From Bacteroidales bacterium (GTDB lineage: Bacteria > Bacteroidota > Bacteroidia > Bacteroidales > WRLA01), in contig WRLA01000001.1 of NCBI GenBank assembly GCA_009777825.1, forward strand, positions 12,852-76,851: 64,000 nucleotides of DNA. Direction: 5' to 3'. The position numbers and the translations under genes were made by a program. Within the stretch, counting starts at the first letter, position 1. Every line of letters begins with the position of its first letter. A model generated the notes under the pieces. It was given only the letters and a program-made list of their open reading frames with translations, did no database searches and was not told the DNA's origin. Below are positions 2,073-21,938 of this stretch, in pieces.

Positions 2073-2222
2073 CGGAGTGAGATGTGAGATTGTGCGATTT
2101 GCGATGTGAGACTTTGAGACACAAGACTTTCTCTGTGAAACTCTGTGTTCTCCGTGTCTCTGTGCTGAAAAAATAACTCATAACTTGTAACTCTGGATTG
2201 TTTCGCTGCGCTCGCAATGACG
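2073..2222. repeat. mosaic intergenic repeat (modules M1, M3 inverted, M2 inverted)
   Basis: Three modules are present here. M1 is gtgagatgtgagattgtgcgatttgcgatgtgagactttgagacacaagac. M3 is ctctgtgaaactctgtgttctccgtgtctctgtgctgaaaaa. M2 is ctctggattgtttcgctgcgctcgcaatgacg. The same modules recur at 63671-63799 in a different order and orientation, and M2 recurs at 38732-38765. Confidence 0.7.
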
Positions 2223-2333
2223 AACAACGACAATTTAAAATTCCTCTCTTTTATCCTTTTTATCGCCGCAGGCTTTTATCTTTTTATCATTATATATCGC
2301 ACACATTCACATTTTTATGTATTTTTGCTCATC

Positions 2334-2831: not shown

Positions 2832-2850
2832 CAGATAGACGCAGATTTTA
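2806..2850 (+). repeat. GCAGAT-run element, copy 1
   Basis: Sequence ttagcacgcagatgacgcagatttagcagatagacgcagatttta. Near-identical copy at 62526-62570 and a degenerate copy at 55251-55294. Confidence 0.7.
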
Positions 2851-2852
2851 AA

Positions 2853-3956: not shown

Positions 3957-4000
3957 TATTATTTTCAGATTATAATTGGCTATAACTATATATTTTTTCG

Positions 4001-4022
4001 AGTTATAGCCAAATATAAATTT
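4001..4022. repeat. 22-bp perfect direct repeat, left copy (AGTTATAGCCAAATATAAATTT)
   Basis: Identical 22-mer at 5491-5512. Its left half pairs with ttggctataact at 3976-3987 to form a hairpin just after the ATPase stop codon. Confidence 0.85.
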
Positions 4023-4030
4023 TATAAATT

Positions 4031-5446: not shown

Positions 5447-5471
5447 AAAAGATAAAATTTATATTTGGCTG

Positions 5472-5479
5472 CAAAGGTA
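5472..5479 (-). promoter_or_regulatory. -7 promoter box (TACCTTTG on minus strand)
   Basis: Forward caaaggta lies 26 nt upstream of the ATPase ATG, in the loop between inverted copies of agccaaatataaattt. Confidence 0.5.
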
Positions 5480-5490
5480 TAAAAAAATAT

Positions 5491-5512
5491 AGTTATAGCC
5501 AAATATAAATTT
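5491..5512. repeat. 22-bp perfect direct repeat, right copy
   Basis: Identical to 4001-4022. Its right half pairs with aaatttatatttggct at 5454-5469. Confidence 0.85.
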
Positions 5513-5522
5513 CGTGTCATCT

Positions 5523-5975
5523 TCAATACTTCTCCAACGCCTCCCGATAACTCTCTTTCATCTCTTCCGCAAAACTTTGCGCTTCCATCACTTTCACGCT
5601 TTCGCCATGCGATAAGACGTAGATTTTCACGCGGTTGTCGTAAATATCCCGCGCCAGAAGGTACCAGCGATACTTAAACTCTTTCAATGCCAAAGGGTTG
5701 ACGGTTTGCTCTTCGGGATGGCCGGTGTAATACTTCTGATAGGAAAACGTTGCCTGAATCCGGTTTTTGATGGCGTGGAGCAAGCCGTAGAGGTGTTATG
5801 TTCCCTGCGTTTGCCGTTTTTCGAGATAGAGGTACTGTTTGTTGCGCTCATTCATCTTCAAGGCGTGACAGACGTCGAAAGCTTCGAAAAAACAGTCGTA
5901 AATTTCGGGTTCAAACTCTTCTTCGATGTAATAAGGAGTATTAAAAAACCGCCAAAGTTTTTTAATTCCTTGACG
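5523..5975 (-). pseudogene. WYL-domain protein remnant (5'-truncated, in-frame stop)
   Basis: My hand translation of the minus strand reads ...RFFNTPYYIEEEFEPEIYDCFFEAFDVCHALKMNERNKQYLYLEKRQTQGT*HLYGLLHAIKNRIQATFSYQKY...FKYRWYLLARD.... An in-frame TAA sits at about 5787-5789. A stop codon with no ATG lies at the 5' limit. The KYRWYLLA motif is typical of WYL domains. Confidence 0.5.
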
Positions 5976-6002
5976 ATTGTAAAATTAAAAAAATGAAAAA
6001 TA

Positions 6003-9000
6003 TTATGGGTTAACCCACTCTTTCGTCTCCTGATAGATGGTGTTATGCGCACCGAAATTAATACGGATGACATTGAAATCGGCACTGTTGATGCCTTTAT
6101 CGCCGGTCAGGTCGTATCTCAGGTCATAGTTGCCGTTTCCGATAAAGCCTTCTTTGGATCGGATGGCAGAGTAGTCTTTTTCGTCAATCTTCATGTCGCC
6201 GTTGACATCTCCGCCTACAAGTTCGCGGTGTTCCAAGTAGGCGTTGTCGGTGATGTGTACCTCGGCATAGCGTGTGAGGAAACCCTGACGAGATATTTCC
6301 AAGATGTATTCGTCGGGCGCAATGTCTTCCAAGATAAACCAACCGAGAGGCGCAGTAGGACATCTGTCTGCAAGCGTAAGTTTAGCCGTATTCGGCACGC
6401 CGGAGATCTTACCTATGTCGCTCCATTTGATTGATAATCCGGGATTATTGAGATTGCCAATTATACCGGGGTGTTTAGGCGCTCCGACGATAACGTCATC
6501 AACATTGCAGTCATAATATAACGCACGGATTGTCAGTAGCGGCGTCTGTTTGCGAATATATCCTATCTTGTCGAGCGTGAGCGGCGGCGGAGGCGTGTAG
6601 AGTTTTGCCAATACCACAACATCTGTATTAAACGCATCGTCCACCGTGTGAACAAACGGGGAGATCGTCCCTTTCGGACTGTAACATTCGGCGGTTACGA
6701 AAACAGGCGTGCGGTCGCTTTCGCAAATTCCTACGGCTTGTGCAGCCCAATAGGTCGTCTCATTTTCCAACAACGTTGTCTCCGGCGATGTTATTTCGTT
6801 GCCATGATCGTCATACCATTTGATATGGACGCCGATGACCATCAGGTCGGAGACAAATACTATTTTACCGTTGCAGGTCGTCTGTGTCGGCGGAGCGATC
6901 GGTGCCGGATATTGGTCAAGAACGACTTCTACCGACGTACGTGTGGCGCTTTCGCAACTGCCCGCTTTCTGAGCAGCATAATAGAAACCTTCTATCAATA
7001 TGGCGTCGTTCAACAATGGAACGCCACCCGTTGAGGTCGAATACCACACAATTTGGTCGTTGGGTATGGCTAAGTTGGCTATCAAAGCGCCTTCACAGAA
7101 GTGTTGTGGGGTATCCATCTCCGGAGCAGCGGAAACGGCGCCCGTAAGGTAAATGTTTACCTCTCTGCGTTGTACGCTGAAACAAGCGCCGCCACCAAAT
7201 TTCAATGCAGCATAAAGCGTAGTCGTATCACTGACCAAAGGCATATCGGATGGCAGTTGAGAGCCGTCGGTCATCCGGTCGAACCATACAATATTGGTGT
7301 TTCCGTTGGTCGGAACGTCTGCCAAGGTAGCAGGAGCGCAAAGTTCAACTTCGTAGGGCAAATCCGGCGCATCTATAACCACATTGTTGTTAATGATAAC
7401 CGTTACGGCTGTCCGCTCTCTTGCACAACCCTCAGCGCTTATTTGTTCGACATAATAAACGCCGTCAACCAACTCTTCTGTTTCCGGGAAAGGCGTTCCT
7501 CCTGTTTCCGAATCATACCAAAGCACATCTTTTTGATTGATTGTCAGTAGATCGGCTACTGTCGCACCATCACAGAATATTTGAGGCGAGATAGCCTCCG
7601 GAGGAGCAATAGTTCCGCTATTGCCCTGCCCTATCTCGATGCCGTAAATACGCACCACGCAGCCTTCGTCATCTTTTACGAAGACGTCGTGGAAGCCGGC
7701 GCCAAGACCGGTGATGGCGTAGGGCGCGGTCAGCGGTTTGTAACTCACGCCGCCATCGAGGCTGTAGTAATAGGGTGATACTCCGCCGGTTATCGTCAAG
7801 TTGGCGCTGCCGTTGCTCAAACCGCAACCGGCGCTGTAGGTCGTCGCGGAGGTAACGGAGAAAGTCGTGGCGTCGTTGGTAATGACTTGCGTCTTAACCT
7901 GAGTGATGCAATCTTCGTCGCTGCGCAGTTCTACGTCGTAACTGCCTGCCGGGACGGAGTGGTAGATCTCGTCGCTGTTGATGGCGATCCACGCGCCGCT
8001 GTTGATACGGTAATCCGTTGGTTCTCCGGCGGTTATGGTTATCTTCAAGATGCCGTTGCTGACGCCGCAGATTGCCGTTGCTTCTTCGTCCAAGGTAAAT
8101 GCCATGCCGCCGTCGTCCGCTGCTCTTATAATAAAGCCGCCCACCGGAACGTCGCAACCGCCGTCAACGATGGTTAAGGTGTGGTCGCCGATGGCGATGT
8201 TTCCTATCGTAACATGGTTATTATCAGTTACTTGCGTCGGTATCTCGTCGTCAATATAGTAATAATATGGTATCGTAACGTCGGTAGCGGTGAAGATGAT
8301 GCTGCCTTCGCCGTCGCAGTTAGGCGCGTCGGTGATGGTCGTGATGGCGATGAGCGTCGTCGTGCCGCTGTTGGTCAACGCCAACGTTTGGCTCACGTCG
8401 CTACAGCCGCCGCCGGACACCTGCACCGTAACGGTGTAGTTGCCTGCCGACAGCCCGCCGATGATGCCGCTGCCGTCCAAATCATCCCAGCCGCCGCCGT
8501 TCAACGAATATTCGTAAGCGCCGCCGCCCGTAACAACCAACTTGATGCTGCCGTCATTGTTGCCGCACGTCGGCTGTGTCATCACGCTAATCGAAACAAT
8601 ATCAACGGTTTCACTACTGCCCTGCCCTATCTCGACGCCGTAAATACGCACCACGCAACCTTCGTCGTCTTTGACGAAGATGTCGTGGAAGCCGGCGCCA
8701 AGACCCGTGATGGCGTAGGGCGCGGTCAGCGGTTTGTAACTGACGCCACCATCGAGGCTGTAGTAATAGGGTGATAATCCGCCGGTTATCGTCAATCCGG
8801 CGCTGCCGTTGCTCAACCCGCAACCGGCGCTGTAGGTCGTGCCGGCAGAGACAGAGAACGTCGTCGCATCGTTGGTGATGACCTGCGTCTTAACTTGAGT
8901 GATGCAATCTTCGTCGCTGCGCAACTCTACGTCGTAACTTCCTGCCGGGACGGAGCGGTAGATTTCGTCGCTGTTGATGGCGATCCACGCGCCGCTGTTG

Positions 9001-12000
9001 ATGCGGTAATCCGTTGGTTCTCCGGCGGTTATCGTTATTTTCAAGATGCCGTTGCTGACGCCGCAGATTGCCGTTGCCTCTTCGTCCAAGGTAAACGCCA
9101 TGCCGCCGTCGTCCGCTGCGCGGATGGTGAAGCCGCCGACAGGAACGTCGCAACCACCGTCAACGATGGTTAACGTGTGGTCGCCGATGGAGATTTCGGA
9201 GACAGTAACAGGATTATTATCAGTTACCTGAGTGGGCGTTTCGTCGTTTATATAATAATAATATGGTATCGTAACGTCGGTAGCCGTGAAGATGATGCTG
9301 CCCTTGCCGTCGCAGTTTGGCGCGTCGGTGATGGTGGTGATAGCGATGATAGCCGTCGTGCCGCTGTTGGTCAGCGCCAACGTATGGCTCACGTCGCTAC
9401 AGCCGCCGCCGGACACCTGCACCGTAACGGTGTAGTTGCCTGCCGACAGTCCGCCGATGATGCCGCTGCCGTCCAAATCATCCCAGCCGCCGCCGTTCAA
9501 CGAATATTCGTAAGCGCCGCCGCCGGTAACGACCAACTTGATGCTACCGTCGGAGTTGCCGCACGTCGGCTGCGTCATCACGCTAATCGAAACAATATCA
9601 ACGGTTTCACTACTGCCCTGACCTATCTCGACACCGTAAATACGCACCACGCAACCTTCGTCATCTTTGACGTAGATGTCGTGGAATCCGGCGCCAAGAC
9701 CGGTGATGGCGTAGGGCGCAGTCAGCGGTTTGTAACTGACGCCGCCGTCGAGGCTGTAGGAATAGGGTGATACTCCGCCGGTTATCGTCAAGTTGGCGCT
9801 GCCGTTGCTCAAACCGCAACCGGCGCTGTAGGTCGTGCCGGCAGAGGCAGAGAACGTCGTCGCATCGTTGGTGATGACTTGTGTCTTAACCTGAGTGATG
9901 CAATCTTCATCGCTACGCAACTCTACGTCGTAACTGCCTGCCGGGACGGAGTGGTAGATCTCGTCGCTGTTGATGGCGATCCATGCGCCGCTGTTGATGC
10001 GGTAATCCGTTGGTTCTCCGGTGGTTATCGTTATCTTCAAGATGCCGTTGCTGGCGCCGCAGATTGCCGTTGCCTCTTCGTCTAAGGTAAACGCCATGCC
10101 GCCGTCGTCCGCTGCTCTTATAGTAAAGCCGCCGACAGGAACGTCGCAACCGCCGTCAACAATGGTTAACGTGTGGTCGCCGATGGAGATTCCGGAGACA
10201 GTAACAGGATTACTGTCAGTTACTTGCGTCGGTATCTCGTCGTCAATATAATAATAATATGGTATCGTAACATCGGTAGCCGTGAAGATGATGCTGCCCT
10301 CGCCGTCGCAGTTGGGCGCGTCGGTGATGGTGGTGATAGCGACGAGCGCTGTCGTGCCGCTGTTGGTCAGCGCCAGCGTTTGGCTCACGTCGTTACAGCC
10401 GCCGCCGGACACCTGCACCGTAACGGTGTAGTTGCCTGCCGACAGTCCGCCGATGATGCCGCTACCGTCCAAATCATCCCAGCCGCCGCCGTTCAACGAA
10501 TATTCGTAAGCGCTGCCGCCGGTAACGACCAACTTGATGCTGCCGTCGGCGTTGCCGCACGTCGGCTGCGTCATCACGCTAATCGAAACAATATCAACGG
10601 TTTCGCTACTGCCCTGCCCTATCTCGACGCCATAAATACGCACCACGCAGCCTTCGTCGTCTTTGACGAAGATGTCGTGGAAGCCGGCGCCAAGACCCGT
10701 GATGGCGTAGGGCGCGGTCAGCGGTTTGTAACTGACGCCACCATCGAGGCTGTAGTAATAGGGTGATAATCCGCCGGTTATCGTCAATCCGGCGCTGCCG
10801 TTGCTCAACCCGCAACCGGCGCTGTAGGTCGTGCCGGCAGAGACAGAGAACGTCGTCGCATCGTTGGTGATGACCTGCGTCTTAACTTGAGTGATGCAAT
10901 CTTCGTCGCTGCGCAACTCTACGTCGTAACTTCCTGCCGGGACGGCGCGGTAGATCTTGTCGCTGTTGATGGCGATCCACGCGCCGCTGTTGATGCGGTA
11001 ATCCGTTGGTTCTCCGGCGGTTATGGTTATCTTCAGGATGCCGTTGCTCACGCCGCAGATTGCCGTTGCCTCTTCGTCTAAGGTAAACGCCATGCCGCCG
11101 TCGTCCGCTGCGCGGATGGTGAAGCCGCCCACCGGAACGTCGCAACCGGCGTCAACGATGGTTAATGTGTGGTCGCCGATAGCAATGCCCGTTATTGTAA
11201 CAGGATTACTATCAGTTACTTGCGTGGGCGTTTCGTCGTTTATATAATAATAATATGGTATCGTAACGTCGGTAGCGGTGAAGACGATGCTGCCCTCGCC
11301 GTCGCAGTTGGGCGCGTCGGTGATGGTCGTGATGGCGATGAGCGCCGTCGTGCCGCTGTTAGTCAGCGCCAACGTTTGGCTCGCGTCGCTACAGCCGCCG
11401 CCGGACACCTGCACCGTAACGGTGTAGTTGCCTGCCGACAGTCCGCCGATGATGCCGCTGCCGTCCAAGTCGTTCCAGCCGCCGCCGTTCAACGAATATT
11501 CGTAAGCGCCGCCGCCCGTAACGACCAACTTGATACTGCCGTCGGCGTTGCCGCACGTCGGCTGTGTAAGAACGCTAATCGAGACAATATCAACCTGTTC
11601 ACTTCCGCCTTGTTCTATTTCGACGCCATGAATTTCAAACGTGCAACCGTCGTCATTGCTGAGGGTAACGGTATAAATACCTGCCGACAGGTTTTCTATT
11701 TCATACATATAGGGATTGGTTGTCGTGGTAAACGGTATTTTTGTTTTTCCCAAATCAAAACTATAGTAATATTTTCCTTCGTCGCCTGTTATTTTCAGTT
11801 CGATATTTCCGCTTCCTTGTCCGCAGGTTGTTGGGGCGCTGCTTTTCAGTTCGGCGGTGAAGGCTTCGGCATCACTGTTGGTAACGGTTTCGGATTCTAT
11901 CTGAGAGATACATCCGCTTTCATCGCGCAGTTCGACTTCGTAATATCCTGCCGGGAGGGGTATTTCTGTTGTGCTCAACACCGTCCATTTGCCGTTGTTA

Positions 12001-15000
12001 ATCCGGTATTCTTTTGGATCTCCGGCAGTTATATTTATTGTCAATTCGCCTAAGTTGCCGGAGCAATCGGCTTGTTCGGTCATGGTCAAGTTGAAGGTTA
12101 GTTCGTTGTCGGCAGACCTTATGGTGAAAGTTCCTACTGGGATTTCACAGCCTCCGTCAATGACGGTTAAGGTGTATTCGCCAATGCCTAAGTAAACCGT
12201 AACGGGAAAGTCATCGTTTACTTCTGCCGGAACTTCATCGTTTATCTGATAATAATATGGTATTGTTGCGCCGGTAACTTCAAATGTTATTTCGCCGTCC
12301 GTTGCTTCACAATCGCCGGCGTCGGCAATATTTGTTATTTCGACGGTAGCGCTTACATTTTTGTTTGTCAATGTCAAGGTTTGGCCGATTTCGTCGCAAT
12401 TGCCGGCATCAGTGATTACGATGTTGTAGAATCCGGCGGGTAATCCGGTGATAATGCCGCTTTCGGGCAAGATTCCGTATTCACCGTTGATGTCGTAAAG
12501 ATAATCGCCGTTGCTACGGTTGATAAGCACTTGTATGCTGCCGTTGTCATTTCCGCAAGTTGGCTGCTCGAATACCAATATCGAACCAATCATCGGTTCA
12601 CAATCATCAACTTTCCATATTGCATACAAGTCGGTGTCTTCGGTGATGTAAAAGTAACTTTCCGGTTCGAAAGCAGAGCCTGTCCAGACGTAGTAAGGTT
12701 CTGTTGCTGAGGATGATAGCGCCCATCCGAGGAAGACATAGTTGAGGCGGGCGAATCCGGAAGATTGATAGATTGATACCATGTTGTTTTTACAATAATA
12801 GTCTGTACTCGGAGGCATGGCGCCGCCGCCACCGTTGGCATGATACGTTACGCGATAAACGTCGAGATGAGGCGGTTGTAACGCACCCGAAAAGTCTTCT
12901 GCCGTAAATGCTTTCAAAACAGGCAGGTTGGTTGGCGTATCTCCTGCGGTTACTACATTATAGCCGATATAGTTATATATCCAGTAATCGTCGAAATCGC
13001 CACCCCAGTTGCCGGTTATTGCGAAAGCGCTGCCGTTGGTGTTAAGGACAGGTAGCGGCGGTATCGTTATTCCGTCGTTGCTGTCCGTATTATTGAAAGC
13101 GGCGAGGCAATTCAGAGCGTAGTTGTTGGTCAAGGTGGTCTGTCCATTGCCGGAGATACGTCCGACAAAGTGCGCTGCCGGAGCCGTTATCCGCACATTA
13201 AAGGCAAAACAGTTTTCTATGGTTGTTACGCCCGCAATGGTTCCCACGATTCCGCCGACATAATCTTCTCCTTCGACGACGCTGGTGGTGTAGCAGTTGG
13301 ATATTTCCGAATCCGAGATACTTCCTACAATTCCGCCGACAAAGTTATTCCCTTCAACATTTCCGGTGGTGTAGCAATTGTTTATTTCCGAATCCTCAAC
13401 AGTTCCCACAAGTCCGCCGGCATGATTATAAAGTACTGCAACATTGACGGTAGAGTAGCAACTGTGGATGAGTGAGTTGTCCATAAGTTCTCCCACAAGT
13501 CCTCCTCCGAGCGTACCGGCTACTTCAATATTTCCGGTAGCGTAACAATGGGTGATGGTCGTATTTTCGGCACCTCCTACAACTCCTCCGACGCCGGAAT
13601 TGCCTCTAATTGTATCAATATTTACTCCAAGGCTGTCAATAGTGGCGCCTATAACGTAGCCGAATAATCCTTGCCCATACGCCTCTCTGTCTATCCACAA
13701 TCCGCTGACGGCAAAGCCCTGTCCGGTAAATTCGCCGACGAAGGGGTCGTTGTCGCTTGTACTTGTATAATATCCTATTGGAATCCACCCCTCCCCTACT
13801 GTCATCATCCATCCGCAGTCGTCATTATCCTTTTCATATTCGGAGTAGAGCGTTTCTGCGATGGTGATTCTGGTTTCGATGTCGGTTTCGTAGTCGGCGT
13901 CGGTTTCGTCGTATTCGGTAGTGTCGTCGTCGGTGATAAATCCTTCGTATCCCCACCAACCGAAGCGTTTGTCGCCCAAGTGGACGTTTTGCACGTCTGT
14001 TTCTCTGTCGGCTAAGCCGGTGCCGTCGCCGAAGTTGGGTATGTTGGTATCTGCGTCGTTTTCGTCTTTGAAGAATCCGCCCGGTGTTCCTATATTTTGC
14101 ATGATGGCGTAGGTGGCATCCGGATAGCGTTCCTGCACATACATCACGTGTGCGAGGTCGTCCCAGTTCCAGATTTCAAACACGCCTTGGCTATTGGGTT
14201 TGTATGGCGCCACCACGCTTATGGAGTCGCTTTTGGAGGTACATCCTGTTGCTGTAAAGGTATAGGTCAGCACGACTTTGCCGATGGCAACGCCTGTTAC
14301 AACTCCTCCGTCGGTAACGGTTGCTATGGCGGGGTCGCTGCTTTCCCATGTTCCGCCTGTTGTGGGCGACCAGATGATGGTTTCGCCAACGAACACTTCG
14401 TAGGCTCCCGATATGTTCGGTTCATTGACCGTGAGGGTATCGCTGACGGCGACACATCCTGTGAGGTCGGTTGTGAAAGAGAAGGTAACTTTTCCGCCTG
14501 AGACGCCGGTAATTTCTCCGGTGAGTTCGTCCACAGTTGCTATGGCGGGATCATTACTTGTCCATGTTCCTCCGATCCAGCGGGATAGTTGCGACATTTC
14601 GCCTACGCAAATAACGTTATCGCCGGTGATGAGAACGGTGGGTAAGGCTTCTAACTCCAACTCTCCGAAAGCGTCCCAAAATATGGTGATGGCACATTCA
14701 TCATCGGAGAAACTGAAAAAATCAAACACCATCCCGAATGCGGTAAAGATGGGATTGCCGCTTTCGTCGAATATCGGTTCGCCTTCAAAGTCATAATCTT
14801 GTTCTAGGGTCTCGGGCGCTATTACTTGGAATATAATGATATGTTCGCCCGGCGGGATGAGAAATCCTTCTGCTTCTAATTCGTCGTTGTAACTTCCTAT
14901 TACCAAGAATCCGCCTCCGTCGTCATACAATTCAAAGTCGCCGAGTGTGATTGAGGAAGAAGAGAGGCTGCCGTCCAAGTATTGGAAATCTTCATTGTAA

Positions 15001-18000
15001 GAGACGCCCAGCCCTGTTTCCGAGATGGGTAGCGTGTTGGGGTTTCGTACTGTAATGGCTATTGAGATGGTATCTTTTGGGGAGAAACACACTTTTTCCA
15101 TAATCTCTTCTATATTAAGTATTTCGAGTGGTTTCAGTCTGTCGGCGCCTGATTCTAACGCGACGATTGTTGAGGGTCTGCATCCGGACAGGAATGCATC
15201 GCAACTTTCGTAGAATCTGGGATTCCAGGCGCCGCCTTCCCATTGTTGGTAATCTATTCGCGCACGGTTGGTGTATGAGCCTTCGGTTGCGTTCAGGTCG
15301 AAATAGGCGCGTGCGCTAAATTCTGTCGTGCTGTTTCCTGTTGCTACGAGGCTGTCAATGGTCAGTGTTGCCATATCGTTGTAGGCGTGGATGTTGGTAA
15401 CGCCGTCTTTTATATTTTCTGTTGCTAAGGCGATGGAATTGGGCAGCCATTTCATGCCATTGGGCAGGGTAACGGTGAAATTTGCCGTTTTCTCTCTACA
15501 GTTGACGTTTTGAATACAGTAGGTATAGGTTACATATTGGCAAAGCAGCACGGTGTCTCGTAAGCGATCTCCTGCCTGTTGCGAAAGGTTAATGCCGTCT
15601 TCGTTAATTGGCGGCGGCGTAAATGGACAGGTAAAGTTGATGGGACCGCCGATAGCGAGATATCGTGTTGCGGTGGAGGTTCCGCCGCTGATGGTGTGTT
15701 CTATGAAGATTTTATTTACAGGTTCTTCAAATTGGACTTTCATCCATCCTCTTTGGTTGCTGATGCTCATGCTGGAGTTGACTCTGGCAATTGCCGTGCC
15801 TAAGTTCGGATGGATAATATAAGTACTGTTTTGCGGTGTGGTAGCATAACTCATCTTGGGGATTCTTGTTCCATAGCCGCATGTTCCATATATTTTCAAA
15901 TTGTCGTAACGTCCGCCGCCGCCGCCAATTCTTTTTATGTCGAAAGTAGCCATTGCGGAGGAGTCTAATTCTATGGTTGTTATCATCTTTTGTCTTGGAT
16001 TTCCTTTTCTTGCAAATGACAATGCGGCGCTGGTTGCATTGGGCGACGGGCTGACAAAGACGGAGTTGCCGGGCTGTTCAAAGTTCGCTGTCATGGTTGC
16101 GGTAAGTCCATAATTGTTCAGGTTAAAGTTTCGTGTTACGGCGCGGTTGGGCCATGTTTGGGTGGTAAATGTAATGGGGTTCAAACGGTTGTCCACATCG
16201 CAGGCATCGCAATCGGTGAAGAGTTGCGTTCCGCCGAAGGTGAAGTAATAGGTTTTTCCTGCTTCAAAAGTTAGGTTAAATTGGTGCATTCCGTCCACAA
16301 AGACGCCGTCAAAGACCATATCCCATTGTCTTGTTTGTATTTTCGCTTCGCTGTCGGCAATGATGAGATATACTTTCCATCCGGGTCCGTCGTAGGGGAA
16401 GTTGTCAATTGCGCCGGAGTGCCGGTAAGCGCCCATGATCACGTTGTAGTTTTCCTGCGTCAGGACATTCACCATCCATATACGGTTTTCCAGCATTTCT
16501 TCAAAATCTCCGCAGAGGGCATCTTCGCCGGGAGTAACGGAATAGGTTAGGGAGGTATAGTCTCCGCCGTTGTTACCCCATATAATGATCTCTTTGTCGG
16601 TATTCAATCCGCTCAGTTGAGGGCTGATTCCGATACGCTCGCCTATTCCCATGACCACAGCCGCTCCGGCGTCGGTAGAGTGGGCTTGACGGTTGTTGAG
16701 ACTTGCCAAGTCGTCGCGCACGATGGCGGCTACGTTATGGTGATATTGCACATGGAGCGGGTCGGAATTACCTGCCCAGACCAAGGTACCGTCGGCAAGA
16801 TGGTAATCAAAATTCACTAACGGGTTGGTTTTATCTTTATCTACGGTAACGCCGTATTTCAGTCCCAAATAGGAATAAATAGCGTCTTTTTCCGGTTCGT
16901 CTAACAACCTTTCAAACATGATTACCTCGCCCACGGTGCCGATCAAGGCTCTTGCCGGAAGCGAGCCTCCGCCCAGCATGCCCGGACCGTTCATCAGCGT
17001 GTTGTTTCCACTGTTATAAACGGCTGCATTATTCCCCATTGTCTCGCCTTCGCCATCACCTTCATACCGAAGGTAGGAGGTTGCTTGATTGGCTCCGACA
17101 TTGCCAAAATTCATGGAAATGAGGGTAGCATACTGATTATACAACGCTTGCACGCCATTCACCGCAGCGTTATAAAAGTATGACCGTCCAACGCCTCTGT
17201 TTTGTGTATTTATTTGAAAACCAAAGCCCGGACGTCGGTAGGTATCGGCTCCCGAATTGCCAATGTCTAAAGAAGCGCCCGCATTCGAACTTCCAAAACC
17301 GAAAATGTAGGAGCATTCCGCTCCGTTGCTATACCATCCATACTGACGGATATGCACTACGGAGATGAGGGTATATTGCGGAGGTCTTGGTACGGAAAAA
17401 CAGGTGCTGTCCGTACTTAGATATTCAAATTTCCGGTCGTCTCCGGTATAGTCATCATAGTGATTACGGAAATCTACGGCTGGGTGGAAGTTCATATCGG
17501 GGTCAACGTTGCGAAAACCGGGACGCGCGTTGGTCGTTACCGGCGCCATATAATAATATCGTCTATCTCTACTATTGAAGGTTCCGAAGTCGCGCCATTC
17601 CTGCACTTCGCCGTCCACAAAATCCAACGAAGAGGGTTCGTCGGCTTTGAGCCATATACGCGTATCGAGAACGCCACCGGGACCTTTTGCCTGATAGGCA
17701 AAGCAAAAATAGTCGTTGTCGCGGATCAATATATCGTGGACTATCGCGCTGTTGTCCATTTTGTAAACATCAGTGCTACTTGTGGGGAAAGTGGGGTCGT
17801 CCGACACAATCATGTAGTCGGCTTTGAGTCTTCCTGCTCCGATATTCACCGTCATGGAGGTACATCCGATAGTATGTGCTTTAAATATCGTGCCATGACG
17901 GTAATCAAGTTTCATGTCAATGGTAGTGTTCAAAAACGCCTCTCCTTCGGGATGGTCAAACAACTCTTTGGTGGAGTTGCCTGCGATGATGCCATTGGAT

Positions 18001-21000
18001 CCGATCATCAGGTATTGTCCATCGTTCAAGGTGCCGTTGTTTTGGCTGTTGAGCGTCGGGAGTGTTTGGCTGTTTCCTAAGAAAACGATAACTTTTTCAC
18101 TACCATCCACACTGAGTGATTGTTTTTGGTAAAGTCCGATAGCGTCGTCGCGCCCGATGCCGAATATGTTGTTGCTATATCCGGCACAGTCGGGGTCGTC
18201 TTTATCCCAGATGACAGTGCCGTCGAAGGCTATCCATTGCGGTTGTGCGATGGTATCGAGCATTTGCCCATATTTCACTGCCAAGTAGGTATTGATTTTT
18301 GCCATATCGAGTGGAGCAAAGGGCGTCCCTGCGGGCGCAGACAGAACGATGATTTCCTGAATATCGCCGTAGAAAGGGTTGGAACTGGCGCCGGCTTGTC
18401 TGTTCCCGACAACGGCTCTTGCGCTACCGGCGGTAACGGGTCGGGCAGTTCCGGGAGCGGGAGTCGCTTGTTTGGCATTATGCCACACATAACCGTTTCT
18501 ATCCATGCTGACGATACCAAATCGTTTTGAGGCTCCCGTAGTGGTTGTCAATCCCGGAGTGAAGTTGGTAACCGTTCCATTAGAAAAATAGAGATAGTCG
18601 TTGTTGGTGGCTCCTCTCCATCCTTCATCGAGATTGGCGCCGGTGCGATAGGAAAACAAGGCGCCGTAGGCGGTGGTCCCCGTAAGATTTGCCGTTGACA
18701 CATAAAAAGTACGATAGACGCGTCCCGTATTGGCATACGTTTGGAAGTTATGTTCGGTTACCAACTGTTTGAAAGGCGCTGCAAAACGGACAGCGGGCTG
18801 GAAGTTCATGCCTTCGTCCTTATATATCGGCACGTTTTGTGTTCCGTTGCGCACTAAATCGTTCATGGTTCCCGACTGGTTTGCCCATCGTGTTACCGAC
18901 ATGCCGTCTATGGATTGCGAGCCTGCCCGCATATTGTTGGCGTCGAACCATAATTCTACGGTATAGTTGAGCATGGAGCCATCAATGACAAAGCCGATAT
19001 AGTCGCCGTCTTCTATCTTTACTCCGGTAGCAATGCCATCGTTAACGGCATAAATGCGAGTATCGCTCGGAATAAAATTTGTTGTATTGGAGACTATGAC
19101 GTATTTTGCTTTGAATTTCTGAATCAACAGACTTACGGTAATGTCGCTGTCGTCTCCTGTAAGTTGCGCTTTATAGAGGCGTTGCTGGCGTGTGGCGAAA
19201 GTTTCGTGCGACAGCAGTGCGTTCTCAAACTGCATGTTTGCCGGCGTATAATCCGTGATGCCTTCCTGGTTGTTGGAACCGAGAAGCAGGTAGGTCATGT
19301 TATTCAAAGTTTCCGGATTTTGGCTATTCAGAGTGTATAATTGATTCCCCCGAAAGACAATCAACACAGAATCGTCACTGTTAATCGCCTGACGCTGATA
19401 CAAGCCGGTGGTCTCATCGCGGGCAATACCGAAAATATTGTTGTTATAGCCTGTGTTTGCCGATCTGCTCCATACTATATTGCCTGCCGTATTGATATAA
19501 TCATCATTGTTTTGCAACATGATGCCATATTTGACGGCTAAGTAGGAGTGGATTTTTTGCATATCAATAGCGTCAACATGTTGGTTGTCTGTTCTTTTAA
19601 TCAAGATGACTTCCTGTAACATTCCCCGATAGCCGTACCACGCCTGACTGTTACGACCGCCGCCCAGCGCTACCCTTCCATTTCCGCGATTCGTAGTACC
19701 GTTCCATTGGGCTGTTGCAAAATTGGTTTGTACGCCGTCTTTAAAACACCTGATTCCTTCCTGAACTGCGGTGGCTGTTACATTGACGTTTCCTACGGAA
19801 AGCAATCCTTTTTCTACGGCTCCCAAGGCTCTTGAAGTTGTTCCGGGCCAAGTGTATGTGAGGTTATGATTATTGGCACGCCACGAGATAGCGTTATAGT
19901 TGTCGGTGTTGGTTACACCCATCAGAAAATCATAATACAGAGACGTTGTTACCCGTCGTTGCAATACGAAGATGGTAGTGAAACTCTCCGTCGTAGCGAT
20001 ATCAATAGGCAAGTCCGATAAAAGTTGATTGGGCGCTGAGCCGTTGGCACCCGGTTTTTCAAATAATACGATGGGATGATAGTTGTATCCTGTCGTGTTA
20101 AGTTTGCGTGGTGCCGTTGCCGCGCCGGAGAAGTTGCCTACGCCTTGCTGCATCAGGTTCAGCCAAACGCCGTTGTTATAATTCTCTGACGTGAGCCACG
20201 CAACGACATTGGCGTTGGTGATCCCGCCCGGCATTTTTTCTAACAGGGCAAAGCCGATGTAATCGCCGTCGGCAATTTCGACATTTCTGGCGATTCCGTT
20301 GCCGTCGAGAAGATAGAGGGTAGTGTTTCCCGGAATGAAATCGGGAGCAGACGACACCATTAAATATTTCGCTTTGTAACTGTTCAACTGAAAACTTGTC
20401 GTAACCGAAGCGGCTCCCGTTACTTGCGCATTGTAAACAGCGCTCAGACGGATGTTGAGGTTTTCATCTATGGTCAGATTTGAATAGGGGGTCTCTTTTG
20501 CCCATATATATGGGGTCATGCCGGTCAATCCGTTGGAGCCCAAGAGCATATAGGTCATATCGCTCAAAGTGCCTCCGTTATTGACATTTAAGGGGTATAA
20601 TTGATTATCGAGAAAAGTGGTCAAGGTCTTGTCTTCACGACTTTCTGCCTGCTTTTGATATAAGCCGGTGGCATCGTCGCGCCCGATGCCGAATACATTA
20701 TTGGTGTATCCTGTATGGTTAGAGGATGTCCAAACCATGGTTTCTGCGGAGTTGTAGAGGTCGGGCATGTTGCTCTGATTGAGCGCATGACCGTATTTAA
20801 TGGCTAAATAGGATGTCATGATCTGGTGATCCATCGCCGTGAAAGGAGTGTTCGCCGGCTTTGAGATGATGATGATCTCCTGAATATCGCCGTAGAAAGG
20901 ATTGGTCGCCCCGGCAACTGTCGTTACGCCGATGGTGGCTCTTGTGGCAACGCCGGTAAACGGTCGGGCGGCGCCGGTTGCCGGCGCTGCATTATGCCAC

Positions 21001-21524
21001 ACGCTACCGCTCCTGTCTATACTGATAATCCCATACCGCTTCGTGTTCGTACCCGGGTTCACACTGGTATAGCCTGCCGGAGTACCCCCATAATAATATA
21101 GGTAATTGGCGCTGGTTAGTCCCTGCCACCCTTCGTACTGATTGTCACGGTAGGCAAAGATAGAACCGTATGCCGTCCCCGTCAGAAAGTTTTCCGACAC
21201 CACGTAATACGAGCGGTAAATCTTGCCCTCGTCAATCGGGAAGTTGTTCTGCGAGACCAACTTCTTGGCCATCGTCTGAAAACGAACCGACGGCTGAAAA
21301 TTCGAACCGCTACGCCTGTACACAGGAACCGCCGCAGTGTTGTACTGCAAGAAGTCGTTCGACTGCGACGACCAATCTTTCCACTGTGTTATATTGGTGT
21401 TGTCCGCCGGCATGGAGCCGTCCAAAACCTGATCGGCTTTCAACCAAAGTTCGACATCGTAACCTGTTTGCGCCGAAACGCTTAAGCCCGCACAAAAAAA
21501 GATTGCTAAAAATGATTTTTTCAT
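6003..21524 (-). CDS. giant multidomain cell-surface adhesin-like protein (~5,173 aa from the MKKSFLAIFF start)
   Basis: Single uninterrupted ORF 6003..21560. The probable start is M13 at 21524 (MKKSFLAIFFCAGLSVSA|Q signal peptide). Domain blocks recognised by eye are listed as separate features. Confidence 0.9.
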   Translation of the reverse strand: MKKSFLAIFFCAGLSVSAQTGYDVELWLKADQVLDGSMPADNTNITQWKDWSSQSNDFLQYNTAAVPVYRRSGSNFQPSVRFQTMAKKLVSQNNFPIDEGKIYRSYYVVSENFLTGTAYGSIFAYRDNQYEGWQGLTSANYLYYYGGTPAGYTSVNPGTNTKRYGIISIDRSGSVWHNAAPATGAARPFTGVATRATIGVTTVAGATNPFYGDIQEIIIISKPANTPFTAMDHQIMTSYLAIKYGHALNQSNMPDLYNSAETMVWTSSNHTGYTNNVFGIGRDDATGLYQKQAESREDKTLTTFLDNQLYPLNVNNGGTLSDMTYMLLGSNGLTGMTPYIWAKETPYSNLTIDENLNIRLSAVYNAQVTGAASVTTSFQLNSYKAKYLMVSSAPDFIPGNTTLYLLDGNGIARNVEIADGDYIGFALLEKMPGGITNANVVAWLTSENYNNGVWLNLMQQGVGNFSGAATAPRKLNTTGYNYHPIVLFEKPGANGSAPNQLLSDLPIDIATTESFTTIFVLQRRVTTSLYYDFLMGVTNTDNYNAISWRANNHNLTYTWPGTTSRALGAVEKGLLSVGNVNVTATAVQEGIRCFKDGVQTNFATAQWNGTTNRGNGRVALGGGRNSQAWYGYRGMLQEVILIKRTDNQHVDAIDMQKIHSYLAVKYGIMLQNNDDYINTAGNIVWSRSANTGYNNNIFGIARDETTGLYQRQAINSDDSVLIVFRGNQLYTLNSQNPETLNNMTYLLLGSNNQEGITDYTPANMQFENALLSHETFATRQQRLYKAQLTGDDSDITVSLLIQKFKAKYVIVSNTTNFIPSDTRIYAVNDGIATGVKIEDGDYIGFVIDGSMLNYTVELWFDANNMRAGSQSIDGMSVTRWANQSGTMNDLVRNGTQNVPIYKDEGMNFQPAVRFAAPFKQLVTEHNFQTYANTGRVYRTFYVSTANLTGTTAYGALFSYRTGANLDEGWRGATNNDYLYFSNGTVTNFTPGLTTTTGASKRFGIVSMDRNGYVWHNAKQATPAPGTARPVTAGSARAVVGNRQAGASSNPFYGDIQEIIVLSAPAGTPFAPLDMAKINTYLAVKYGQMLDTIAQPQWIAFDGTVIWDKDDPDCAGYSNNIFGIGRDDAIGLYQKQSLSVDGSEKVIVFLGNSQTLPTLNSQNNGTLNDGQYLMIGSNGIIAGNSTKELFDHPEGEAFLNTTIDMKLDYRHGTIFKAHTIGCTSMTVNIGAGRLKADYMIVSDDPTFPTSSTDVYKMDNSAIVHDILIRDNDYFCFAYQAKGPGGVLDTRIWLKADEPSSLDFVDGEVQEWRDFGTFNSRDRRYYYMAPVTTNARPGFRNVDPDMNFHPAVDFRNHYDDYTGDDRKFEYLSTDSTCFSVPRPPQYTLISVVHIRQYGWYSNGAECSYIFGFGSSNAGASLDIGNSGADTYRRPGFGFQINTQNRGVGRSYFYNAAVNGVQALYNQYATLISMNFGNVGANQATSYLRYEGDGEGETMGNNAAVYNSGNNTLMNGPGMLGGGSLPARALIGTVGEVIMFERLLDEPEKDAIYSYLGLKYGVTVDKDKTNPLVNFDYHLADGTLVWAGNSDPLHVQYHHNVAAIVRDDLASLNNRQAHSTDAGAAVVMGIGERIGISPQLSGLNTDKEIIIWGNNGGDYTSLTYSVTPGEDALCGDFEEMLENRIWMVNVLTQENYNVIMGAYRHSGAIDNFPYDGPGWKVYLIIADSEAKIQTRQWDMVFDGVFVDGMHQFNLTFEAGKTYYFTFGGTQLFTDCDACDVDNRLNPITFTTQTWPNRAVTRNFNLNNYGLTATMTANFEQPGNSVFVSPSPNATSAALSFARKGNPRQKMITTIELDSSAMATFDIKRIGGGGGRYDNLKIYGTCGYGTRIPKMSYATTPQNSTYIIHPNLGTAIARVNSSMSISNQRGWMKVQFEEPVNKIFIEHTISGGTSTATRYLAIGGPINFTCPFTPPPINEDGINLSQQAGDRLRDTVLLCQYVTYTYCIQNVNCREKTANFTVTLPNGMKWLPNSIALATENIKDGVTNIHAYNDMATLTIDSLVATGNSTTEFSARAYFDLNATEGSYTNRARIDYQQWEGGAWNPRFYESCDAFLSGCRPSTIVALESGADRLKPLEILNIEEIMEKVCFSPKDTISIAITVRNPNTLPISETGLGVSYNEDFQYLDGSLSSSSITLGDFELYDDGGGFLVIGSYNDELEAEGFLIPPGEHIIIFQVIAPETLEQDYDFEGEPIFDESGNPIFTAFGMVFDFFSFSDDECAITIFWDAFGELELEALPTVLITGDNVICVGEMSQLSRWIGGTWTSNDPAIATVDELTGEITGVSGGKVTFSFTTDLTGCVAVSDTLTVNEPNISGAYEVFVGETIIWSPTTGGTWESSDPAIATVTDGGVVTGVAIGKVVLTYTFTATGCTSKSDSISVVAPYKPNSQGVFEIWNWDDLAHVMYVQERYPDATYAIMQNIGTPGGFFKDENDADTNIPNFGDGTGLADRETDVQNVHLGDKRFGWWGYEGFITDDDTTEYDETDADYETDIETRITIAETLYSEYEKDNDDCGWMMTVGEGWIPIGYYTSTSDNDPFVGEFTGQGFAVSGLWIDREAYGQGLFGYVIGATIDSLGVNIDTIRGNSGVGGVVGGAENTTITHCYATGNIEVAGTLGGGLVGELMDNSLIHSCYSTVNVAVLYNHAGGLVGTVEDSEINNCYTTGNVEGNNFVGGIVGSISDSEISNCYTTSVVEGEDYVGGIVGTIAGVTTIENCFAFNVRITAPAAHFVGRISGNGQTTLTNNYALNCLAAFNNTDSNDGITIPPLPVLNTNGSAFAITGNWGGDFDDYWIYNYIGYNVVTAGDTPTNLPVLKAFTAEDFSGALQPPHLDVYRVTYHANGGGGAMPPSTDYYCKNNMVSIYQSSGFARLNYVFLGWALSSSATEPYYVWTGSAFEPESYFYITEDTDLYAIWKVDDCEPMIGSILVFEQPTCGNDNGSIQVLINRSNGDYLYDINGEYGILPESGIITGLPAGFYNIVITDAGNCDEIGQTLTLTNKNVSATVEITNIADAGDCEATDGEITFEVTGATIPYYYQINDEVPAEVNDDFPVTVYLGIGEYTLTVIDGGCEIPVGTFTIRSADNELTFNLTMTEQADCSGNLGELTINITAGDPKEYRINNGKWTVLSTTEIPLPAGYYEVELRDESGCISQIESETVTNSDAEAFTAELKSSAPTTCGQGSGNIELKITGDEGKYYYSFDLGKTKIPFTTTTNPYMYEIENLSAGIYTVTLSNDDGCTFEIHGVEIEQGGSEQVDIVSISVLTQPTCGNADGSIKLVVTGGGAYEYSLNGGGWNDLDGSGIIGGLSAGNYTVTVQVSGGGCSDASQTLALTNSGTTALIAITTITDAPNCDGEGSIVFTATDVTIPYYYYINDETPTQVTDSNPVTITGIAIGDHTLTIVDAGCDVPVGGFTIRAADDGGMAFTLDEEATAICGVSNGILKITITAGEPTDYRINSGAWIAINSDKIYRAVPAGSYDVELRSDEDCITQVKTQVITNDATTFSVSAGTTYSAGCGLSNGSAGLTITGGLSPYYYSLDGGVSYKPLTAPYAITGLGAGFHDIFVKDDEGCVVRIYGVEIGQGSSETVDIVSISVMTQPTCGNADGSIKLVVTGGSAYEYSLNGGGWDDLDGSGIIGGLSAGNYTVTVQVSGGGCNDVSQTLALTNSGTTALVAITTITDAPNCDGEGSIIFTATDVTIPYYYYIDDEIPTQVTDSNPVTVSGISIGDHTLTIVDGGCDVPVGGFTIRAADDGGMAFTLDEEATAICGASNGILKITITTGEPTDYRINSGAWIAINSDEIYHSVPAGSYDVELRSDEDCITQVKTQVITNDATTFSASAGTTYSAGCGLSNGSANLTITGGVSPYSYSLDGGVSYKPLTAPYAITGLGAGFHDIYVKDDEGCVVRIYGVEIGQGSSETVDIVSISVMTQPTCGNSDGSIKLVVTGGGAYEYSLNGGGWDDLDGSGIIGGLSAGNYTVTVQVSGGGCSDVSHTLALTNSGTTAIIAITTITDAPNCDGKGSIIFTATDVTIPYYYYINDETPTQVTDNNPVTVSEISIGDHTLTIVDGGCDVPVGGFTIRAADDGGMAFTLDEEATAICGVSNGILKITITAGEPTDYRINSGAWIAINSDEIYRSVPAGSYDVELRSDEDCITQVKTQVITNDATTFSVSAGTTYSAGCGLSNGSAGLTITGGLSPYYYSLDGGVSYKPLTAPYAITGLGAGFHDIFVKDDEGCVVRIYGVEIGQGSSETVDIVSISVMTQPTCGNNDGSIKLVVTGGGAYEYSLNGGGWDDLDGSGIIGGLSAGNYTVTVQVSGGGCSDVSQTLALTNSGTTTLIAITTITDAPNCDGEGSIIFTATDVTIPYYYYIDDEIPTQVTDNNHVTIGNIAIGDHTLTIVDGGCDVPVGGFIIRAADDGGMAFTLDEEATAICGVSNGILKITITAGEPTDYRINSGAWIAINSDEIYHSVPAGSYDVELRSDEDCITQVKTQVITNDATTFSVTSATTYSAGCGLSNGSANLTITGGVSPYYYSLDGGVSYKPLTAPYAITGLGAGFHDVFVKDDEGCVVRIYGIEIGQGNSGTIAPPEAISPQIFCDGATVADLLTINQKDVLWYDSETGGTPFPETEELVDGVYYVEQISAEGCARERTAVTVIINNNVVIDAPDLPYEVELCAPATLADVPTNGNTNIVWFDRMTDGSQLPSDMPLVSDTTTLYAALKFGGGACFSVQRREVNIYLTGAVSAAPEMDTPQHFCEGALIANLAIPNDQIVWYSTSTGGVPLLNDAILIEGFYYAAQKAGSCESATRTSVEVVLDQYPAPIAPPTQTTCNGKIVFVSDLMVIGVHIKWYDDHGNEITSPETTLLENETTYWAAQAVGICESDRTPVFVTAECYSPKGTISPFVHTVDDAFNTDVVVLAKLYTPPPPLTLDKIGYIRKQTPLLTIRALYYDCNVDDVIVGAPKHPGIIGNLNNPGLSIKWSDIGKISGVPNTAKLTLADRCPTAPLGWFILEDIAPDEYILEISRQGFLTRYAEVHITDNAYLEHRELVGGDVNGDMKIDEKDYSAIRSKEGFIGNGNYDLRYDLTGDKGINSADFNVIRINFGAHNTIYQETKEWVNP
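6036..6215 (-). other. C-terminal dockerin-like duplicated EF-hand segment of the giant protein
   Basis: Sequence GGDVNGDMKIDEKDYSAIRS...YDLTGDKGINSADFNVIRINFG. It contains two D-x-[NT]-G-D-x-x-I-[DN]-x-x-D calcium-loop-plus-helix segments, as in type I dockerins. No T9SS CTD motif is present. Confidence 0.6.
6690..7606 (-). repeat. four ~75-80-aa Ig-like repeats (pattern PQxFC..A.(V/L)ADL....WY....GG..L.....L..G.YY..Q....CES.R..V.V)
   Basis: Protein-level repeats start at ISPQIFCDGATVADL, VELCAPATLADV, PQHFCEGALIANL and TQTTCNGKIVFVSDL. Confidence 0.6.
7607..12590 (-). repeat. tandem array of five 996-bp units (each with 4 SprB-type repeats, 20 in all)
   Basis: Each unit reads VDIVSISV(M/L)TQPTCGN.DGSIKLVVTGG.AYEYSLNGGGW...GVEIGQGSSET. 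Four near-identical units lie at about 7607-11590, and one divergent unit at about 11591-12590. Antisense artefact ORFs recur every 996 bp (8181, 9177, 10173, 11169). Confidence 0.9.
12612..12857 (-). other. Listeria-Bacteroides repeat (Flg_new-like) domain of the giant protein
   Basis: Sequence YRVTYHANGGGGAMPPS...YVFLGWALSS...ITEDTDLYAIWK matches the ytVtfdaNGG...GytF.GW....itLYA.W pattern. Confidence 0.6.
13195..13600 (-). other. GLUG-motif repeat region of the giant protein
   Basis: Repeated GG(L/I)VG......I.(N/H/S)CY.TG.V.G units, for example AGGLVGTVEDSEINNCYTTGNVEGNNFVGGIVGSISDSEISNCYTT. Confidence 0.6.
14210..14632 (-). other. two Big_2-like Ig domains of the giant protein
   Basis: The two domains are GGTWTSNDPAIATVDELTGEITGVSGGKVTFSFT and GGTWESSDPAIATVTDGGVVTGVAIGKVVLTYTF. 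Confidence 0.6.
16640..21465 (-). repeat. four paralogous ~420-470-aa LamG-like modules of the giant protein
   Basis: Each module begins (Y/T).(V/I)(E/A)(L/W)W(L/F).A.. and ends G(D/E)(I/V)QE(I/V)I....P.....(I/M)..YLA(I/V)KYG......(I/V)FGI(G/A)RD(D/E).TGLYQ(K/R)Q. The YL.(I/V/L)KYG anchors lie at about 20795, 19535, 18270 and 16860. Confidence 0.6.
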
Positions 21525-21938
21525 AAGATTATCCTTTAAAATTTGTTCAAATACACTCACTTTTATTATTTATATACTTTCCTTGTTTTTACGGATTTTG
21601 TCCATAAAAAAAGTGGTGCAAAGTTCGTTCATAAAACCCGAACGGTTATAATATATATCTACCTAAATTTTCTAAAAATATACGGTTTTTTTTAAAAAAA
21701 TATTAATTTTTTAATGAATATTAACAAATTATTCTCAAAAAAATCAATGTCTCAGTGCGGTAAATCCTACTTATACGAAAATTCAATTTTAAAAAAAACG
21801 TTATTATTTTTCATTATATACTCCTTTTTTTTAAACTATAAAATGCGCGATATTCGTGTGAAATTTGCAAAATTGTCCGATTTTTCATACATCCCAACAA
21901 TTCTCAATTTTCAATTCTCAATTTTCAATTATTTTTCG

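Follow-up and report, generated by a model that had tools for sequence, protein, structure and literature searches.

A tandem array of four-domain units with a gene-conversion mosaic in a giant, putative surface protein of a Bacteroidales bacterium

We analyzed a 64,000-nt stretch from the genome of an uncultured, termite-gut-type Bacteroidales bacterium (positions 12,852 to 76,851 of contig WRLA01000001.1, assembly GCA_009777825.1; hereafter, the window), in which a single giant open reading frame (ORF) of 5,185 codons, found in the ORF list, the translation, and the sequence (6003..21560, minus strand), contains a tandem array of five units, here named U0 to U4. The array itself is genuine, and chance is no issue for it. 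It is probably best read as an array of four-domain units with a stalk role that arose by duplication of whole units and was partly homogenized by intragenic gene conversion. In this scheme, one old duplication event would have given rise to U0 and later events to U1–U4, after which conversion would have partly homogenized the units, leaving a 295-nt tract shared by U2 and U4 and, in the 3′ 45% of the unit, a likeness between U2 and U3. The unit proteins are held 92–95% alike by strong purifying selection while synonymous sites drift, and the number of units would change by RecA-type unequal recombination between them. The units would form a stalk, rigid or semi-rigid, that governs the projection of the N-terminal 3,000 residues from the cell.

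As Tandem Repeats Finder has a maximum period of 500 and is thus blind to the array, shift autocorrelation was used inside the giant ORF, where the top shift is 996, followed by 1992 and 2988. In a 60-nt sliding comparison at a shift of 996, identity is 80–100% from 7607 to ~10660, and the resulting high-identity array (7607 to ~11650; 4.06 copies) has sharp edges, outside of which identity is at a background of 20–35%. All units are on the minus strand. U1 (7608..8603, aa 4320–4651) forms the C-terminal edge and has diverged furthest among the four similar units, while U2 (8604..9599, aa 3988–4319) is closest to U4 at offsets 56–360 and to U3 at offsets 530–996. These are followed by U3 (9600..10595, aa 3656–3987) and U4 (10596..11591, aa 3324–3655), from which the DNA similarity runs on for ~60 nt to ~11650. 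U0 (11592..12587, aa 2992–3323) is an old, diverged copy with four domains in the same order as in U1–U4: it has 44–46% protein identity to them, end to end over 332 aa, and is not recognizable at the DNA level (31% ungapped). A preliminary description of this DNA had proposed five head-to-tail units of 332 codons with four SprB-type domains each, and the top peak at a period of 996, the alignment of U0 over 332 aa, and the match to Pfam SprB bear this out. Since the whole array lies within one minus-strand ORF (6003–21560), the four similar units are promoter-distal, as had also been proposed, but to call them near-identical in DNA was an overstatement. Their DNA identities are 91.0% (U1–U2), 91.7% (U1–U3), 91.2% (U1–U4), 93.9% (U2–U3), 94.8% (U2–U4), and 91.7% (U3–U4), and their protein identities are 91.9–95.2%. 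Private substitutions are most numerous in U1 (37) and fewest in the central U2 (10), and this excess in U1, together with the far greater divergence of U0, is the usual picture in which edge units escape homogenization. Every pair of units has 8–16 exactly matching runs of 25 nt or more, and the array is therefore still a substrate for recombination.

The Pfam SprB family (PF13573) is matched above its gathering cut-off of 28, with 57.7 bits for aa 2401–5185 (six stretches) and with 32.2 and 32.7 bits for single units. Within one unit, the four domains have 16–33% mutual identity and two conserved Cys each (eight Cys per unit). When the domains of U0 are compared with those of U2, identity is 40–58% at matching positions versus 19–32% off the diagonal; with this position-for-position correspondence, the four-domain block rather than the individual domain is the duplication unit, both anciently and recently. 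From an alignment of the five units and 12 distant homologues, AlphaFold2 predicts four consecutive β-sandwiches whose individual folds are confident (mean predicted local distance difference test, pLDDT, of 82). In a search of the unit-alignment profile against the PDB, a single protein stands out, GhpA (E 8.6e-24, nine stretches), and the top eight Foldseek matches of the model are all fragments of the GhpA stem, neck, or base (best E 1.9e-10, range 2e-10 to 2e-8), with TM-scores that are low (0.20–0.25) because the inter-domain arrangement differs or is uncertain. With its 332 residues, the unit forms a super-repeat that comprises four different β-sandwich domains of the immunoglobulin (Ig)-like, disulfide-type SprB/GhpA kind, for 20 domains in total.

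From the N- to the C-terminus, the protein consists of three ~420-aa modules, matches to Big_2, GLUG, and the Listeria-Bacteroides repeat, the five units, and a C-terminal cassette. The likely start of the gene is the ATG at ~21524, and the translation opens with the signal-peptide-like MKKSFLAIFFCAGLSVSAQ; the product is, putatively, a giant secreted surface protein. The three N-terminal modules (17670–21473, minus strand) are homologous, with 33–42% mutual identity; they have no match in our local Pfam copy, while their homologues carry PF26628. For the N-terminal 416-aa module, AlphaFold2 gives a poor model (pLDDT 54), whose weak lectin-like jelly-roll matches are a hint only.

Between units, the synonymous divergence (dS) is 0.16–0.31 and the nonsynonymous divergence (dN) is 0.023–0.046, with dN/dS of 0.13–0.17. 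Given this dS, the array is not a very recent expansion, and the uniformity of the unit proteins owes much to purifying selection. The C-terminal 534 aa have a close orthologue of 88% identity (P0018/L163), found on a 1,996-nt contig from the Joint Genome Institute (JGI) that includes no more than 64 aa of the last unit, and its cassette compares with that of the window at a dS of 0.215 and a dN/dS of 0.30. What the contig retains of the last unit, 192 nt, agrees with U1 at 178/192 positions versus 172–173/192 for U2–U4. Being nearer to U1, this fragment suggests that U1 was already distinct at the lineage split and that the units are at least that old.

The most likely role of the units is that of a stalk, as suggested by their position beside the anchoring cassette, their homology to the GhpA stem, and the literature on Periscope Proteins and fibrillar adhesins. 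Alternatively, the units could themselves be a functional surface, either for SprB-like binding to glycans or cell surfaces or for GhpA-like lateral oligomerization, with copy number tuning avidity or bundle length. Such a role would be in keeping with the inter-protomer contacts formed by the Ig-like repeats of GhpA and with the dN/dS of the units (0.13–0.17), which is below that of the cassette (0.30) and indicates a stronger constraint than a mere spacer would predict. However, the sequence allows no inference of a binding site or partner, and the N-terminal 3,000 residues hold more obvious candidate binding modules, namely the weakly lectin-like repeats and the Big_2, GLUG, and Listeria-Bacteroides repeat matches. 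We regard a binding or oligomerizing surface as unlikely, although it is the alternative that fares best.

Several known systems come close to the giant protein and its array. GhpA, the grappling-hook protein of Aureispira (PDB 9flp, 9fls–9fly, 9g8b), is the best match in sequence and fold, not only for the unit but also for the Ig_7 region of the cassette; it too exceeds 5,000 residues, and its stem strings together many disulfide-containing Ig-like repeats of ~83 residues. The 52 Ig-like, disulfide-containing repeats of this stem form a rigid heptameric shaft, and the authors of that work remark on a kinship with SprB (10.1101/2024.01.29.577165). Whereas GhpA is a heptamer with 52 "slightly varying" repeats and a type IX secretion system (T9SS) sorting domain, the window protein has 20 domains arranged as a super-repeat, four copies of which are 92–95% identical. 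With the gliding adhesin SprB of Flavobacterium johnsoniae, and with SprB-repeat proteins in general (PF13573), it has in common a giant size, an origin in Bacteroidota, a surface location (putative here), and a make-up consisting largely of SprB-type Ig-like repeats behind an N-terminal signal peptide. Unlike SprB, it has no detected T9SS type B C-terminal domain and no downstream sprF/PorP-like gene; it ends instead in Ig_7 domains and an X-module/dockerin-like region, and its host belongs to the anaerobic, gut-type Bacteroidales, with nothing indicating gliding.

The array also resembles the Periscope Proteins (SasG, Rib, Sgo_0707 SHIRT, CdrA; Whelan et al. 2021, PMC8201768), in which tandem, similar, folded domains are encoded by DNA whose identity permits intragenic recombination and in which the number of repeats likewise varies among relatives. 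The long tandem repeats, highly identical in DNA and encoding folded domains, by which such proteins are recognized are present here as four 996-nt units of 91–95% identity, each modelled as four β-sandwiches. In Periscope Proteins, however, the near-identical domains are adjacent and vary between strains, whereas the unit of the window comprises four dissimilar domains and is old (dS 0.16–0.31); its nearest analogue among them is the two-domain E-G5 unit of SasG. Near-identical neighboring domains are thought to favor misfolding, and neighbors diverge (Borgia et al. 2015, PMC4660218; PMC8201768). With near-identical domains placed four apart and neighbors that are 16–33% identical, the array would offer recombination-prone DNA in a 996-nt register without an arrangement that favors misfolding. 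The super-repeats of titin would be comparable in that multi-Ig blocks are duplicated such that neighbors are dissimilar and equivalent positions similar, although titin, a eukaryotic protein found inside the cell, has an unrelated origin.

How far the unit count can be trusted depends on the assembly of the window. In a MEGAHIT assembly of the same strain deposited in the European Nucleotide Archive (ERZ27257348), contig k141_1164144 corresponds to window positions 1–8716 with a single mismatch over 8,716 nt and ends 113 nt into U2, while contig k141_3043477 corresponds to 11410–30247 at 100% identity and ends 182 nt into U4, or ~240 nt into the high-identity array. The intervening 2.7 kb (8717..11409) are missing from that assembly. 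The preliminary description had expected short-read assemblies to be at risk here, and two contigs that are 99.99–100% identical to the window and stop inside the array at 8716 and 11410 are what such a hazard looks like. Exact repeats of at least 141 nt predict a contig end at ~8798, where the observed one is at 8716, and they predict none near 11410. With breaks away from the predicted points, the array is evidently hard to assemble, but the path and unit count of the window are not thereby validated.

Conceivably, assembly could have produced an artefactual unit count or internal mosaic, with fewer or more true units and with U2–U4 representing a chimeric graph path or a mixture of strains. 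Consistent with this, the independent MEGAHIT assembly fails across 8717–11409, the interior of the array turned up in no other record in our searches, and the position of the contig ends away from the predicted repeats hints at extra variants in the sample. On the other hand, the window contains no N, its ORF is unbroken over all junctions, and it extends across a complete 16S rRNA gene at the edge of which the same contig breaks, suggesting a long-read or hybrid assembly. Moreover, the MEGAHIT contigs independently confirm, at 99.99–100% identity, both U1 and U0 as well as 113 nt at the start of U2 and 182 nt at the end of U4 (along with ~60 nt of array-like sequence in the tail of U0), and with units that differ by 5–9% and a single exact repeat longer than 141 nt, most of the array should be resolvable. 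An artefact of this kind is, in our judgment, quite unlikely. The array marks a failure point of short-read metagenome assemblies of this lineage, such that giant adhesin genes are truncated or miscounted in catalogues of metagenome-assembled genomes (MAGs). The 16S rRNA gene (30244–31771, minus strand) has no neighboring 23S, 5S, or spacer tRNA in the window and looks unlinked; the other end of k141_3043477 (window position 30247) coincides with its 3′ edge.

The clearest trace of conversion is an exact match of 295 nt between U2 (8659..8953) and U4 (10651..10945), the array's sole exact repeat of 141 nt or more, in which either copy may have been donor or recipient. This tract spans 36 consecutive variable sites, a length reached in 0/20,000 permutations (P<5e-5). 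Among the other unit pairs, no tract is significant after correction, the best being that of U1–U3, a 35-nt run of 8 sites (P=0.028, uncorrected). Of the 135 variable columns among U1–U4, 40 are parsimony-informative, and these fall into the patterns ABAB (U1=U3, U2=U4; 23 sites), ABBA (U1=U4, U2=U3; 14 sites), and AABB (3 sites). The informative patterns are clustered along the unit, forming 11 runs versus 22.7 expected (P=6e-5), and this strong clustering indicates a recombination mosaic rather than a single history. Patchy gene conversion had been part of the preliminary description, and the 295-nt tract and the clustered sites uphold it. A single unequal crossover, which was considered as an origin of the hybrid U2, would be expected to leave the hybrid between its parents; as U2 adjoins U3 and lies two units from U4, we rejected this origin.

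The mosaic changes along the unit. At offsets 56–360, U2 and U4 differ at 1 site, compared with 25 for U1–U3, 28 for U1–U2, 29 for U1–U4, 21 for U2–U3, and 22 for U3–U4; the ABAB sites in this region thus stem from one conversion or copying event between U2 and U4, with U1 and U3 merely sharing the other state. Clean alternation is limited to two patches of 20–35 nt (offsets 510–530 and 625–650), where alternate pairs differ at 0–2 sites and the two groups differ from each other at 5–8. The first of these lies at 8117–8136 in U1 coordinates; the second, at 8224..8258 in U1 coordinates and again at +996, +1992, and +2988, encodes IDDEIP or INDETP. Over the remaining offsets of 530–625 and 650–996 (~45% of the unit), the adjacent units U2 and U3 are closest, with 5 and 14 differences versus 13–23 for the other pairs. 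The alternation of variant motifs that had been described is found again, with INDETP, AGLTITGGLSPYYYS, and IFVKDDEG in U4 and U2 and with IDDEIP and ANLTITGGVSPY in U3 and U1. Likewise present are two pairs of out-of-frame ORFs that had been named as artefacts (8614–8823 and 10606–10815; 8890–9153 and 10882–11145), and these overlap the 295-nt tract that is identical in U2 and U4.

The earlier proposal went further, however, in positing a higher-order period of 1,992 bp that arose as the array grew by duplication of a two-unit block. The shift of 1992 is indeed a peak, U2–U4 is the closest pair, and the two patches do alternate, but the periodicity rests largely on the one 295-nt tract. A 1-3/2-4 pairing in the identity matrix holds for the second and fourth units, with no real pairing of the first and third: only U2–U4 is closer over the whole unit, through this tract, while U1–U3 (91.7%) is within the range of the adjacent pairs (91.0–93.9%), and the second-closest pair is the adjacent U2–U3. 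Once offsets 56–360 are removed, mean identity, by arithmetic from the matrix, is the same at lags 1 and 2, namely 92.1%.

A duplicated 1,992-nt block whose pattern was later blurred by conversion could still account for ABAB being the commonest pattern (23/40 informative sites versus the one third expected, P=0.0014), for the two short patches of clean U1=U3, U2=U4 alternation, and for the closeness of U2–U4; units 2 and 4 likewise come out closest to each other (49% versus 30–39%) in L084, a relative with 58% identity. Such a block duplication predicts that both pairs are equally close, and this prediction fails in the main ABAB region, where U1 and U3 are 25 nt apart versus 1 for U2 and U4; in addition, U1–U3 over the whole unit is no better than adjacent or outer pairs (91.0–91.7%), the excess of ABAB over ABBA (23 versus 14) is not significant (binomial P=0.19) with sites confined to a few tracts, and lag-1 and lag-2 identities are equal outside the 295-nt tract, all of which makes a two-unit block the least probable of the alternatives. 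We instead read the 1,992-nt periodicity as a by-product of the conversion mosaic rather than a two-unit building block: it is best explained by one recent U2–U4 conversion, which accounts for most of it, two short patches whose alternation has an uncertain origin, and U2–U3 sharing elsewhere.

To place the array among its relatives, we turn to the proteins that share its C-terminal cassette. With the unit as query, nothing was found in a search against genome and metagenome contigs, and a word-indexed protein search returned relatives of at most 37% identity with no self match, all matches being <1,000 aa, such that the index may lack giant proteins. With the cassette as query, 47 proteins were obtained, and with a family alignment as query, 79 JGI metagenome loci; the JGI sample identifiers of the related contigs recur in the names of termite-gut MAGs. 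Units were counted with a hidden Markov model built from the five units in the ORFs of the 38 loci with a long enough upstream flank, on the basis of full or near-full matches, overlapping partial matches being merged by eye. Among relatives that share the cassette, every count from 0 to 6 occurs, and the two largest arrays have no fewer than 8 and 10 units: none in, for example, L085; one in L089, L097, L105, L108, L109, L114, L123, and L130; three in L088, L098, L107, and L118; four in L084 and L150; ~4–5 in L115 (three clear units plus partial matches); five in the window; ~6 in L111 and L117; at least eight in L120; and at least ten in L146. A subfamily of complete ORFs consists of a ~415-aa N-domain, n units, and the cassette, and its lengths (1,280–1,287, 1,610–1,627, 1,950–2,019, 2,295–2,311, and 2,963–2,967 aa) step by whole four-domain units (L108, L114, L130, L133, L135, L129, L110, L128, L118, L115, L150, L111, and L117). 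Two of its members with one and four units (L130 and L150) are 69% identical in their N-terminal and 72% identical in their C-terminal parts. Unit number thus appears to be evolutionarily labile across relatives, and the earlier suggestion that the array is prone to expansion and contraction is borne out to this extent, with the variation seen only between homologues of ≤72% identity.

In the assembled relatives, protein identity between units is 18–77% versus 92–95% here, making the array of the window the most homogenized one seen. This comparison is subject to ascertainment bias, as more homogeneous arrays would fail short-read assembly; one related contig (L112) ends inside an array of its own, with 93% identity at a shift of 1008. 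One relative without SprB units is a complete protein of 3,580 aa (L085:613-11361) with a cassette that is 58% identical to that of the window. Its passenger is GGGI-rich and β-helix-like and contains an internal duplication of ~1,983 nt with 87% identity. The cassette is therefore common to different passengers.

The cassette (6006..7607, minus strand) comprises three Ig_7 domains, a terminal β-sandwich that is CarboxypepD_reg/X-module-like (~6243–6359, minus strand), and a dockerin-like module (~6066–6212, minus strand) with two D-x-N/T-x-D loops. These loops are seen in the sequence as DVNGDMKIDEKD and DLTGDKGINSAD, of the form D-x-N/T-x-D-x3-I-x3-D. The profile of the cassette family matches X-module-dockerin chains of cellulosomal scaffoldins (4wi0_B, 4u3s_B, and 2b59_B; E 1e-8 to 6.5e-8). 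For Pfam Dockerin_1, the giant protein scores 19.9 bits, which is below the cut-off of 22.9, and 11/20 family members match at E<=0.01. No cohesin gene is seen within the window, outside of which no search was made, and the literature, when searched, yielded nothing specific on Bacteroidetes proteins with dockerins in termite guts. No PorP/SprF-like (or PorE-like) gene adjoins the giant gene. Two other repeat-bearing surface proteins in the window carry a Por_Secre_tail, and the genome thus does use the T9SS for other cargo: a BspA-type leucine-rich repeat protein (45665–46747, minus strand) with a 69-nt repeat at 46210–46477, and a 916-aa protein (52489–55239, plus strand) with a 255-nt repeat at 54467–54999.

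Several observations weigh against an array of stalk units shaped by whole-unit duplication and conversion, or against parts of this reading. The internal unit number (U2–U4) has the assembly of the window as its sole source, 8717–11409 being without independent support. The predicted template modelling score (pTM) of the unit model, 0.54, leaves the inter-domain arrangement, and hence rod-likeness, not established. The argument for the age of the units comes from one 192-nt fragment with a margin of 5–6 nt, and copy-number variation (0 to at least 10) is seen only among homologues that are 38–72% identical, not between strains. Finally, no T9SS C-terminal domain of type A (PF18962/TIGR04183) or type B (PF13585/TIGR04131) was detected with Pfam and NCBIfam in the C-terminal 2,785 or 534 residues, and the route by which the giant protein is exported and anchored is therefore not settled.

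Overall, the array would be an ordinary repetitive stalk in a giant SprB/GhpA-like adhesin, the more unusual aspects being the length series of super-repeats and a dockerin-like C-terminus that replaces the T9SS signal. The current understanding of fibrillar and Periscope-type adhesins is not overturned; rather, the array may provide a clear example in a bacterial stalk of a multi-domain super-repeat as the duplication unit and make length tuning of gut-symbiont surface proteins testable. More tentatively, the window protein may represent a termite-gut Bacteroidales family that uses the four-Ig super-repeat as a length quantum (1 to at least 10) and X-module/dockerin-like anchoring instead of a T9SS C-terminal domain, with the array of the window being the most recently homogenized and hence most recombination-active; this is a possibility on which we place limited confidence. 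If true, it would amount to Periscope-like variability without identical neighbors and to a display system of the cohesin-dockerin type in Bacteroidota.

Downstream of the giant gene are genes for a WYL protein, an AAA ATPase, and a GH3 protein; upstream are a tRNA-Thr and an AlbA_2 protein. A very AT-rich spacer of ~430 nt lies immediately upstream (within 21561–22062), and the tRNA-Thr(CGT) at 21989–22062 is on the strand opposite to the giant gene. Elsewhere, the window encodes an LpxC-FabZ fusion and LptD, and the best match of its elongation factor G (EF-G) is 74% identical, from Bacteroidales or Lentimicrobiaceae MAGs; these genes identify the organism as a member of the Bacteroidales. 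The window has further tandem repeats. A 186-nt (62-aa) tandem repeat of ~4.5 copies with 71–73% identity (37106–38061) lies in a 915-aa ORF without a Pfam match (35617–38364, minus strand), and the 12-nt unit AAACAACACAAT forms perfect or near-perfect arrays of 4.2 copies at 56487–56537 and 6.2 copies at 56799–56873. The latter are inside an ORF listed as a Schlafen AlbA_2/helix-turn-helix protein (55300–57102, plus strand) and are possibly slippage-prone coding repeats.

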